This document shows, piece by piece, positions 35,114-37,291 of a stretch of 51,371 nucleotides of DNA. The stretch is from an uncultured Candidatus Saccharibacteria bacterium. GTDB taxonomy: Bacteria > Patescibacteriota > Minisyncoccia > Phycocordibacterales > SW-6-46-9. The position numbers and the translations under genes are program-made. The DNA lies in assembly GCA_964534365.1 (NCBI GenBank), contig CAZHOI010000001.1, positions 254,171-305,541 of the forward strand, read 5' to 3'. Position 1 is the stretch's first letter, and each line of letters starts with the position of its first letter. Under the pieces are notes generated by a model. The model made no database searches. It saw only the letters and a program-made list of their open reading frames with translations, and was not told the origin of the DNA.

Positions 35114-35227
35114 ACAACACGCGAAGCACGTGTTGACAAACAACCAACTACAAACAACTTACGACAATTGGTTTTTGTCGTAAGTGGTAAGTTGTTAGTG
35201 GTAAGTAAACACATGTTCCATGTGTTG
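35114..35227 (-). other. 23S insertion, about helix 68
   Basis: Non-conserved ~114 nt with terminal AACAC/GTGTT hairpins and 7-nt-periodic arms. Confidence 0.8.
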
Positions 35228-35351
35228 CAGGACCGTCCATACTTAACCTTCCGGCATTGGTCAGGCGTCACCCCCTATACAGCCTCTTTCGAGTTCGCAG
35301 GGAGCTGTGTTTTTGGTAAACAGTCGCCAGAGAATCTTTAGCTGCGGCCCA

Positions 35352-35473
35352 GGTATCACGCTAGGCGTGATACACGGATAACTAATGACTCGGACTTATA
35401 ACCGGCACCATTTTGCTTGGGTTATAGGTTATTGTTATCAGTTACTCGTTAGTATCACACGCAGTGTGATACC
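35352..35473 (-). other. 23S insertion, about helix 63
   Basis: GTATCAC..GTGATAC hairpins at both ends; shares 24 identical nt with the helix-45 insertion. Confidence 0.8.
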
Positions 35474-36005
35474 CAGGCAGACCTTATCCCGAAGTTACGG
35501 TCGCTTTTTTGCCGAGTTCCTTGAGGAAGAATCACTCGTTCGCCTTGGTCTACTCGACCTGAACACCTGTGTTGGTTTGCGGTACGGACAATACAAATTT
35601 ATGCTTAGAAGTTTTTCTCGGCTAATTGCTCACTAGTTTTAGATCACCTAAAAGGCTCACGTCATGACATGCGTTGCGGTATATGGTATCCGGATTTGCC
35701 TAAATACCCCACTTCAGCTGCCAACCCCAATCCAATAAGGGGCACTAGCTACTAATCAGCGTCACTCCATCGCAACTTGCATTGGCCAGGGAATATTAAC
35801 CCTGTGTCCATCGCCTCCCCCTTTAGGGATCGGCTTAGGCCCGGCTAACCCGACTCTGATTAACATCGAATCGGAAACCTGGTTCTTTCGGCGTGTGGGA
35901 ATCTCACCCACATTGCGGTTACTCGTGCCAACATTCTCTCTTGTATCCGCTCCACCCCCGCTTACGCGTTAGGCTTCGGCGCTGAATACAATGCTCTCCT
36001 ACCAC

Positions 36006-36145
36006 TAGCGCACCTCACTCAAGTTCGGTTCGCTAACTAATAACTTATAACTTGAACTTATAACCGGCACCATTTTGCTATTTGGTTTTATTATTAGTCA
36101 TTGTTATCAGTTATTAGTTGCATCGAACCTCAGTGAGATGCACTA
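36006..36145 (-). other. 23S insertion, about helix 45
   Basis: Closing stem GCACCTCACT/AGTGAGATGC; TAAC-periodic arms. Confidence 0.8.
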
Positions 36146-36764
36146 ATCCGCAGTTTCGGTACTACACTTAGCCCCGATCATCTTCGGCGCGAAGTCCCTG
36201 AATCAGTGAGCTGTTACGCTATCTTTAACAGGTGGCTGCTTCTAAGCCAACTGCCTGATTGTCTATGGAACTTCACCTCCTTCATTGCACTTAGTGTAGA
36301 TTTAGGGACCTTAACTAGCGATCTGGGCTGTTTCCCTTTTGACCTGCGGAGCTTAGCCCCCGCGGTCTGACTCCCATGTTCTTGACCTCTCGGTATTCGG
36401 AGTTTGATTGGTCTAACGAGCTTGCGCCCTATTTAGACCATCCAGTGCTCTACCCCCGGAGGGAACACATGAGGCTAGTCCTAAAACTATTTCGGAGAGA
36501 ACCAGCTATTACCAGGCTCGATTAGCTTTTCACTGCTATCCACAGCTCATCCCCTCGCTTTGAACGACGAGTGGGTGCGGGCCTCCAGCGACATCTCTGT
36601 CGCCTTCACCCTGGCCATGGATAGATCGCCTGGTTTCGGGTCCGATACTTACGACGTTAATTTTCGCGCTTTCACACTTGCTTTCGCTCTGGCTCCAGAC
36701 CTTTTAGCCTTTAGCCCGCCATAAATATCGACTCGTTGGCTCATTCTTCAATAGGCACGCCGTC

Positions 36765-36872
36765 GAGGACATCACGCTACGCGCGATTGTCAAATAACAC
36801 ATATCATGGAGCAAATTGTTCCATGTTTTATGATTTGTGCTTTATGGCTATCACCCACAGGGTGATGCCCTC
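36765..36872 (-). other. 23S insertion, about helix 25
   Basis: ATCAC/GTGAT ends; 55/60 identity with the 37177-37291 insertion. Confidence 0.8.
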
Positions 36873-37176
36873 TCCGACTCCTTGTAGACACACGGTTTCA
36901 GGTCTATTTCACTCCCTTTGCCAGGGTACTTTTCACCTTTCCCTCACGGTACTAGTTCACTATCGATCTCTAAAGATATTTAGCCTTACCAGTCAGTACT
37001 GGCAGATTCCTCCCGGCTATTCATGTCCGGAAGTACTCAGGAACAGAGACTATAGAGTTCTCGTAATTTCGCATACAGGACTATCACCCTCTATGGTTAA
37101 CCTTTCCAGGTTATTTTGCTATCACGAGAATTTGTAACTCTACCTACGTGAACGCAGAGTCTCTGCCCTACAACCC

Positions 37177-37291
37177 CGACGCATCACGCGAAGCATGATG
37201 CTCATGTAGCACATAACACGTATCTTGGAGCAAATTGTTCCATGTTTTATGATTTATGCTTCATGGCGATCACATTCCATGTGATGCGCCG
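37177..37291 (-). other. 23S insertion, about helix 16-18 region
   Basis: GCATCAC/GTGATGC ends with terminal hairpins. Confidence 0.8.

Follow-up and report, generated by a model that had tools for sequence, protein, structure and literature searches.

We analyzed a stretch of 51,371 nucleotides (nt), referred to below as the window, from the genome of an uncultured Candidatus Saccharibacteria bacterium (GTDB lineage Patescibacteriota; Minisyncoccia; Phycocordibacterales; SW-6-46-9; GenBank assembly GCA_964534365.1, contig CAZHOI010000001.1, positions 254,171 to 305,541 of the forward strand). The 23S ribosomal RNA (rRNA) gene of the window, encoded on the minus strand at 34104-37560, carries five inserts, designated A to E, and we consider it likely that these inserts, which are devoid of open reading frames (ORFs), belong to a selfish, rod-shaped family of intervening sequence (IVS)-type elements lodged in the surface-hairpin loops of stable RNA genes.

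RESULTS

Five rod-shaped inserts prolong surface hairpins of the 23S rRNA

The 23S rRNA gene (Rfam LSU_rRNA_bacteria, 2431.6 bits, model positions 1-2925) is 3457 nt long, compared to the 2925 positions of the model. The source genome (G000; G, C, and L numbers denote our genomes, contigs, and loci) comprises 755,701 bases in 15 contigs at 97% completeness, with the 16S gene on a different contig from the 23S gene. Insert positions were obtained by pairwise alignment to the Escherichia coli 23S rRNA together with flank mapping on 20 relatives' loci. All on the minus strand, the inserts are E (about 37180-37291, E. coli alignment gap 267-278), D (about 36768-36870, gap 539-563), C (about 36010-36147, gap 1165-1187), B (about 35349-35476, gap 1708-1773), and A (about 35110-35232, gap 1859-1891), at what we take to be, in the standard helix (H) numbering, the H15/16 region, H25, H45, H63, and the tip of H68, respectively. 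Annotated as rods, they extend over 37176-37292 (E), 36764-36873 (D), 36004-36147 (C), 35348-35477 (B), and 35109-35233 (A). Alignment to the bacterial large-subunit model, the check suggested in a preliminary description of this DNA, placed the extra bases in hairpin loops at helix tips, e.g., ~101 extra nt of insert E within the loop of the hairpin at model positions 274-295, and all five rods prolong their host helix. Empty sites in relatives (20 loci) hold a short hairpin, the loop of which is replaced by the element where a rod is present.

The inserts span 103 to 138 nt rather than the 108 to 140 nt first given, and their description as ORF-less stood: no ORF of at least 30 amino acids lies fully inside any of the five, and one 30-amino-acid ORF (35148-35240) lies almost entirely within insert A. 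All five are predicted to fold far better than their shuffled counterparts, with z scores of -5.8 for E (a single rod, -50.9 kcal/mol), -5.3 for D, -9.9 for C (-63.3 kcal/mol), -7.8 for B, and -7.0 for A, and none of 200 shuffles of each insert folded as well. Rod folding was equally supported for two inserts in the 16S gene of the source genome and for two inserts of relatives. At their base, inserts E, D, and B carry a common sequence module, termed type I, and insert A carries a variant of it; a covariance model of the type-I element (R1), which recognizes this one base type only, matched E with 95.4, D with 80, B with 78, and A with 72.4 bits. Insert C has a second type of base module and was not matched by R1 in the source genome; its 5' module string recurs at the same site (H45) in the relative G014, at a likeness below the significance threshold.

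Parts of the inserts are shared, as the preliminary description had noticed. Inserts D and E have 56 of 61 nt in common (36794-36854 versus 37213-37273; BLAST E value of 2e-17 against the whole 756-kb genome), a likeness that a repeat search extended to 78 nt at 85%, and insert D is, on this likeness, a paralogue of insert E. Inserts B and C share 24 of 24 nt (35394-35417 versus 36056-36079; E value of 3e-7), with further likeness over 40 nt at 90% and 39 nt at 77%, and the string common to the H68 (A) and H16 (E) inserts amounts to 13 of 14 nt (35115-35128 versus 37182-37195). The view of the five as one self-similar family thus holds for the shared modules and interiors and gives way, in detail, to a mosaic: D and E are alike throughout, B and C have an interior in common on differing base modules, and A combines a variant module with an interior of its own.

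At 35330-35482 of the window, DNA contigs of other populations from the same sample agree with the sequence on either side of insert B and have a short hairpin of 31 to 34 nt in its place.

A symmetric base module is the conserved core of the rod

Three layers make up the rod: at the bottom a conserved base of ~19 bp, then AU-rich arms of 7-nt repeats, and an apex. The base was characterized on an alignment of 11 type-I inserts from five genomes, in which pairing holds for 93.3% of the cells across the 19 basal pairs of the rod and compensatory changes occur at 10 of the 19, values that none of 500 shuffles reached. It is nearly two-fold symmetric, with the half-sites CATCAC and GTGATG on both strands around a central block of 4 to 5 bp, in line with the earlier proposal that the end hairpins could pair either locally or with each other. 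The small hairpin reported at each end of four inserts was recovered in A, B, D, and E, C having another end type. When each strand is folded into its alternative local hairpin, 93.7% of cells are paired, with compensatory changes at just 4 of 13 pairs, each of them carried by one sequence only. The central block, which would form the loops of these local hairpins, co-varies between the strands, one pair showing as many as five pair types, and because of this covariation the alignment supports the extended rod as a selected form. Three G-U pairs are kept at fixed positions in 9 of the 11 inserts, and all four arm segments of insert A bear the same changed letter. A kink-turn or box C/D reading of the GTGATG string was ruled out, the partner strand being fully Watson-Crick.

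The 7-nt periodicity first seen by eye in the long stems is real: over 10 arms, the autocorrelation at lag 7 reached a mean z score of +3.16 and that at lag 14 reached +2.25, with values of -1.0 to +0.5 at other lags. The interior varies in length from ~12 to ~150 nt and evolves fast. Two relatives have minimal elements of 62 to 67 nt, made up of just the module and a tiny hairpin at the apex; therefore, the module is the core of the element and the interior its expandable part. Elsewhere in the source genome (G000:C2:79714-79768), a 7-nt unit similar to that of the arms of insert A is repeated eight times in tandem.

Elements recur at different sites within and between genomes

The preliminary description had suggested that a small element copied itself between variable helices, and proposed searching the inserts against the 16S gene and related genomes; this search did return matching inserts at other sites. 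An all-against-all comparison of 30 inserts, 7 from the source genome (including the two in 16S) and 23 from relatives, gave 14 significant pairs. Twelve of them join different sites (seven within a genome, five between genomes), the remaining two reflect conserved rRNA core included in the extracts, and no same-site likeness of insert to insert between genomes is found among the 14. Every one of the 12 insert-to-insert matches is hence a cross-site match, in support of the suggested copying. Between genomes, a match of 82% over 145 columns, near-identical at both ends, links the H63 insert of G004 to the H15 insert of G023; these two genomes belong to different families and have 23S cores ~77% alike.

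The clearest copies are those of the relative G104, which carries an additional base type, likewise of two-hairpin design, and in which copies at different sites reach 98 to 99% identity. There, the H63 and H98 inserts are identical at 137 of 140 positions and the 23S H15 insert and a 16S insert at 141 of 143, and the inserts of H25, the 23S leader, H68, and 16S helix 6 (h6) are mutually 88 to 91% alike over 162 to 163 nt. Identity between the near-identical copies starts and stops sharply at the element ends. A target-site duplication was looked for and rejected, the flanks of these G104 copies sharing nothing past the element. Moreover, each of the five sites of the source genome is patchily occupied across the 20 relatives' loci. 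Whole elements, base included, have been copied from one helix tip to another and between 16S and 23S genes, with rRNA spacers and a probable RNase P RNA gene also among the places reached.

The type-I element is restricted to one order and to stable RNA genes

R1 matched 10 of 41 relatives (E values up to 0.01) and, at E values up to 1e-4, 29 of 151 genomes sampled from the order, compared to a single match among 150 genomes sampled elsewhere in the phylum. The type-I element is restricted to one order, and relatives that carry it bear public names such as Taylorbacteria, Zambryskibacteria, Wolfebacteria, and Parcubacteria. Since R1 covers one base type, the family is wider than these counts; other base types are those of insert C, of G004, of G104 (its second type), and of the 16S inserts in the source genome.

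The 151 genomes provided 48 unique R1 places, which were located mainly by BLAST against the rRNAs of the source genome. The 23S gene accounts for 41 of them, with H25 as the most used site (14 places), followed by H15/16 (10), H68 (9), H63 (3), H45 and a site at about H98 (2 each), and H9/10 (1). Four places lie in 16S genes, two in rRNA spacers (the 23S leader or downstream of 16S), and one in helix P3 of a probable RNase P RNA, and neither protein genes nor intergenic regions outside the rRNA operons hold any of the 48. Without exception, the R1 match scored higher in the sense orientation of the host RNA. A wider scan of one genome per species with an exact 17-base piece of the module returned 69 loci, 21 of them with an R1 element; of these, 19 belong to 16S or 23S genes or directly follow 16S, another is the RNase P element counted above, and the last is cut by a contig end. 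Over the 48 places and the wider-scan loci, R1 elements measure 62 to 232 nt. The first description, which saw the element within one gene, is thereby refined: the family is confined neither to one gene nor to 23S. Viral contigs, considered for carriage by phages, gave four exact 17-mer matches, none of which is an R1 element.

Within the source genome, the 16S gene (G000:C2:6451-8143, locus L052) also carries two rods, and no copies outside rRNA genes were found by short-word BLAST, hairpin pattern, or R1. This 16S gene is 1693 nt long, compared to 1533 in the model, and holds its rods at about 200-295 and 1215-1335, the second with a hairpin at each end and arms like those of B and C.

The RNase P host (locus L087, G146:C1) is called probable on an Rfam class A score of 30.1 bits (E value of 1.7e-7), below the cut-off of 100. 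The same gene holds a second rod-like insert of a different kind at about 960-1080 of L087, on the minus strand. The RNase P RNA of the source genome (G000:C1:21573-22022; 1501-1950 of locus L104) scores 56.9 bits, also under the Rfam cut-off of 100, and carries, right behind the conserved core motif of its 5' part, a rod-like insert of ~85 nt whose base resembles the type of insert C.

Two inserts match the flanks of a 23S_rRNA_IVP gene cassette

The source genome contains four 23S_rRNA_IVP (PF05635) genes, all away from the inserts. A segment at the apex of insert E (37236-37260, minus strand) matches the 5' flank and start codon of one of these IVP cassettes (G000:C4:38348-38698) at 23 of 25 positions, and another (37199-37213, minus strand) matches its 3' flank at 14 of 15, in the same order as in the cassette. 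The corresponding segment of insert D (36817-36841, minus strand) matches the 5' flank and start codon at 22 of 25. None of 1000 shuffles equaled any of these three matches; the comparison of D with the 3' flank was not significant (110 of 1000 shuffles reach its score). In the relative G008, one arm of the H15 insert in the 23S gene and the flank of an IVP cassette of that genome agree at 42 of 48 positions (0 of 500 shuffles). Inserts D and E thus look like gene-less derivatives of an IVP cassette seated on an rRNA-specific base, and the reverse order of events between the inserts and the cassette is possible.

IVP genes occur in 72 of the 151 genomes of the order, namely in 22 of the 29 R1-positive and 50 of the 122 R1-negative genomes, the nominal P value of 8e-4 being overstated since related genomes are not independent. 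None of the PF05635 matches listed lies at or beside an R1 place, and none of the 150 listed of 183 matches shares a contig with an R1 place, save in two single-contig genomes, where the two are at least 15 kb apart. No PF05635 match lies inside a located 23S gene in the 41-genome sample, and no rRNA-type base module was found in 24 IVP loci scanned.

On another contig of the source genome, a reverse transcriptase gene (PF00078, 105.8 bits; G000:C7:1293-1919) lies 1.5 kb upstream of an IVP (Avd-like) gene (C7:3448-3759), a pair that may constitute a diversity-generating retroelement.

Neighboring features of the 23S gene

Downstream of the 23S gene, the 5S rRNA gene (33496-33604, minus strand; Rfam 5S_rRNA, 84.7 bits) is free of inserts. 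A hairpin repeat of 30 to 32 nt with conserved ends and a variable loop has 14 copies in the genome, three of which flank the 23S gene on the opposite strand (34003-34032, 37631-37661, and 37772-37803). An apparent joint of 33994 to 37634 in the DNA contigs probably reflects a further copy of this repeat rather than a deletion. In relatives, large insertions are common at four conserved positions of the 23S gene (query positions 2834/2835, 3073/3074, 3166/3167, and 3229) and are probably introns; the 23S gene of the source genome has none of them.

DISCUSSION

Fate of the rod in the RNA

We propose that the five inserts belong to a family of selfish elements which insert at the tips of surface hairpins and which, as IVSs, would be withdrawn from the precursor RNA. 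In this model, the dimeric RNase III would cut the symmetric base while the rRNA is still a precursor and release the rod with no re-ligation; the remaining stem would hold the rRNA pieces together, as is the case for classical IVSs. We lean toward such excision because a dimeric enzyme fits the two-fold symmetric base of ~19 bp and because the copies located in the leader and a spacer are more readily understood as processing signals than as structural parts. The source genome encodes RNase III (G000:C1:54519-55172; 251.5 bits, compared to a cut-off of 166), and passages on classical IVSs describe cleavage by this enzyme in mid-stem (PMC4990558).

How the element may move

Our leading guess for the movement of the element, and a tentative one, is a hairpin-recognizing single-strand DNA transposase of the Y1 (RAYT or IS200-like) type acting in trans, because the hairpin at either end, the single orientation, and the absence of a gene are reminiscent of REPINs and miniature IS200/IS605 elements, which Y1 transposases move as folded single strands. 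The source genome has five Y1_Tnp matches, and these genes are not flanked by module hairpins. Y1 genes are present in 25 of 29 module-bearing and in 64 of 122 module-free genomes, related genomes again not being independent.

A likeness was observed in two Pirellulaceae genome bins, which contain many dispersed doublets built on the hairpin stem of the type-I module (loci L117, L126, L128, L131, L134, L142, L153, L154, L161, L173, L179 to L181, and L183). One loop version of these doublets is identical to that of the type-I module, the other is one base from a version seen in G008, and the doublets are flanked by short complementary strings, as REPINs are. As for a Y1 link, such hairpins lie near the Y1 gene in one of six Pirellulaceae Y1 loci, on one side only, which speaks against it.

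Points that weigh against the proposed family

Several observations have to be set against the interpretation of the inserts as excised, mobile IVSs. (i) No gene-bearing type-I rod was found among the 48 places and the wider-scan R1 loci. (ii) The processing stem that flanks the 23S gene lacks the module, and therefore the module is not a general RNase III signal in this genome. (iii) The sequence conservation of the module exceeds the known needs of RNase III. (iv) We know of no documented IVS at H63, H68, H15/16, about H98, or in RNase P RNA, and a rod excised from P3 would split the RNase P ribozyme. (v) The Y1 association is similar in skew to that of IVP genes and hence not specific, and G104, 98% complete and carrying the freshest copies, has no Y1 match. 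(vi) The contigs of two metatranscriptome runs on the same sample are evidence neither for nor against removal of the rods. These contigs match without mismatch over 34532-35035, 35534-36008, and 36178-36565, with one more ending at 36002; they cover none of A, B, and C, nor parts of the 23S core, in a single study and in the form of contigs, which cannot show RNA ends. At insert C, DNA contigs continue where RNA contigs stop, again in one study in which coverage of the core is also gapped. RNA joints skipping B or D have sides of just 21 to 25 letters and probably come from other organisms.

Alternative explanations

A first alternative, possible and yet doubtful in our judgment, is that the rods stay part of the mature rRNA or RNase P RNA molecules, forming surface expansion segments, the base being a lineage-specific protein site or a stable, harmless adaptor. 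Every site is a surface hairpin tip, and expansion segments of eukaryotes and archaea coincide with several of them (H15, H25, H45, H63, H98, and 16S h6). A retained rod in P3 of the probable RNase P RNA would be easier to tolerate, and the conserved G-U pairs and module sequence would suit a specific RNA-binding protein. Furthermore, E. coli ribosomes are reported to function with an unprocessed Salmonella IVS (a passage of PMC8708148, citing Gregory et al. 1996). However, the copies in the 23S leader and downstream of 16S belong to no mature RNA, the fast-evolving interiors, from ~12 to ~150 nt, are ill-suited to a structural role, and the inserts show none of the same-site likeness between genomes that inherited expansion segments have.

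More ambitious, and in our view unlikely, is the reading of the rods as a new class of mobile element, aimed by structure and not by sequence at the exposed hairpin loops of stable RNAs. The symmetric, G-U-marked base would then be the element's own removal signal, cut by a dimeric double-strand RNase and so rendering the element harmless, which would make it the functional equivalent of an intron without splicing. Such an element could move through RNA: after excision, the rod would be joined into the hairpin loop of some abundant RNA, and a reverse transcriptase, helped by the Avd-like IVP protein, would copy it back; alternatively, a Y1 transposase could act on folded single-stranded DNA. 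The RNA route would fit the restriction to stable RNAs, the sense orientation in all 48 places, the conserved G-U pairs, and the presence of a reverse transcriptase gene 1.5 kb from an IVP gene.

It is much less probable that the inserts are vertically inherited variable helices, nothing being mobile, with a cross-site likeness that arose by gene conversion between old inserts. The common interior of B and C on different bases does resemble a conversion tract or mosaic, and C and the H45 insert of G014 have the same module type at the same site. Against this stand the patchy occupancy of every site in the 20 relatives' loci, the identity in G104 that spans the element from first to last base, stops there, and links different genes, and the match of G004 H63 to G023 H15 across families. 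Moreover, the module occurs at at least 11 kinds of site, including the probable RNase P RNA, each of which has to have been reached by insertion once. The preliminary description would have yielded to ordinary vertical helices without cross-site homology in relatives; what relatives provide is the opposite, cross-site matches and no significant same-site ones between inserts.

Self-splicing or protein-spliced introns with exon re-ligation are scarcely credible here, given that no intron family reaches the Rfam threshold in the window (only the LSU and 5S rRNAs attain gathering scores), that the inserts are simple rods of 103 to 138 nt at helix tips with no catalytic core, and that the RNA runs contain no trustworthy joined form (the joints having sides of 21 to 25 letters). 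Finally, an assembly artefact, i.e., a chimera of several organisms' rRNA or collapsed repeats, which the frequent chimerism of rRNA genes in metagenome bins, the breaking of relatives' contigs at insert sites (G002 and G104), and the preliminary description itself had brought into consideration, can be set aside as next to impossible, since contigs of two DNA runs (from one sample, perhaps the source sample of the genome) bridge every insert with no differing letter and at least 31 letters on each side, at a depth of 9 to 13 in run X1 compared to 10.9 in flanking single-copy DNA, and since the same architecture recurs in 29 independent genomes.

Relation to known systems

The proposed IVS-like family is best compared with the classical 23S IVSs at helices 9, 25, and 45 of Salmonella, Yersinia, Campylobacter, Helicobacter, and alpha-proteobacteria, described in passages of PMC4990558 and PMC8708148 as stem-loops of 100 to 200 nt at helix tips that are removed by RNase III with no re-ligation. 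As in those, the ends pair into a long stem, the distribution is patchy, and an RNase III gene is present. Two of the classical sites are used here, H25 by insert D and H45 by insert C, and H9/10 is used in a relative, whereas A, B, and E lie elsewhere. The family described here differs in occupying at least seven kinds of 23S site as well as 16S, spacers, and a probable RNase P RNA, with up to five elements in one gene and about ten in the rRNA operon of one relative. It also differs in a conserved, near-symmetric base module common to sites and genomes and in the direct evidence of cross-site copying.

ORF-bearing IVSs with S23p or 23S_rRNA_IVP genes (Leptospira, helix 45 of Coxiella burnetii, and inserts of the Candidate Phyla Radiation [CPR]) resemble the rods in that stem arms enclose an apex and, for E, in that both cassette flanks and the start codon are kept, D keeping the 5' flank and start codon significantly. 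The arms of 7-nt repeats are likewise those found around IVP genes in the source genome and G008. Unlike ORF-bearing IVSs, no type-I rod examined contains a gene, the IVP genes of the order sit outside rRNA genes, and their cassettes (24 loci) lack the rRNA-type base module.

The short CPR inserts of Tsurumaki et al. 2024 (PMC11270868) are the same class of object in the same organisms. As given there, 82% of CPR 23S genes have inserts, uncharacterized short ORF-less inserts are noted, those at two sites are "probably" IVSs, and some inserts hold IVP genes. The parts of PMC11270868 consulted present no sequence families, cross-site copying, base module, or RNase P RNA case.

REPINs with their RAYT transposases and miniature IS200/IS605 elements share with the rods a hairpin at each end, ends that pair mutually, a non-autonomous character, a fixed orientation, and the presence of Y1_Tnp in the genome. 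In contrast to REPINs, which are intergenic and dispersed, the elements here lie only in stable RNA genes or their spacers, with no flanking conserved tetranucleotide and no target duplication. Their 3' hairpin keeps G-U pairs, which are mismatches in DNA, and G104 has no Y1 match. Among organelle repeats, the double-hairpin elements of Allomyces mitochondria are reportedly similar. The palindromic repeats of Volvox carteri organelles, as far as they are presented in PMC2670323, consist of hairpins that insert into each other and into rRNA regions and are suspected of fragmenting rRNA. These organelle repeats differ in being mostly intergenic or intronic, in their organellar location and sequence, and in having no conserved symmetric base.

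Titles, abstracts, and passages searched in the literature contained no cross-site insert families in bacteria. Altogether, the family is best filed as a multi-site, copy-prone form of rRNA intervening sequence, and this form is new. What is added here is its restriction to one order, the tally of sites with their orientation, the G104 copies, and the colinear match of insert E to both flanks of an IVP cassette.

Beside their evolutionary interest, the rods have practical consequences: they lengthen 16S and 23S genes, break assemblies at repeats, and push RNase P RNA under Rfam's threshold, and if they are excised, the rRNA of these organisms will look degraded. The findings also sort part of the "uncharacterized short" class of CPR inserts into families with a defined anatomy and host range. 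The conserved base module is a concrete object for in vitro tests with RNase III or a transposase. The origin of rRNA IVSs has been open since their discovery in 1990, "remnant of transposition" being an early guess (according to a passage of PMC4990558), and the near-identical copies at different helix tips and in different genes of one genome constitute direct evidence that such inserts move.

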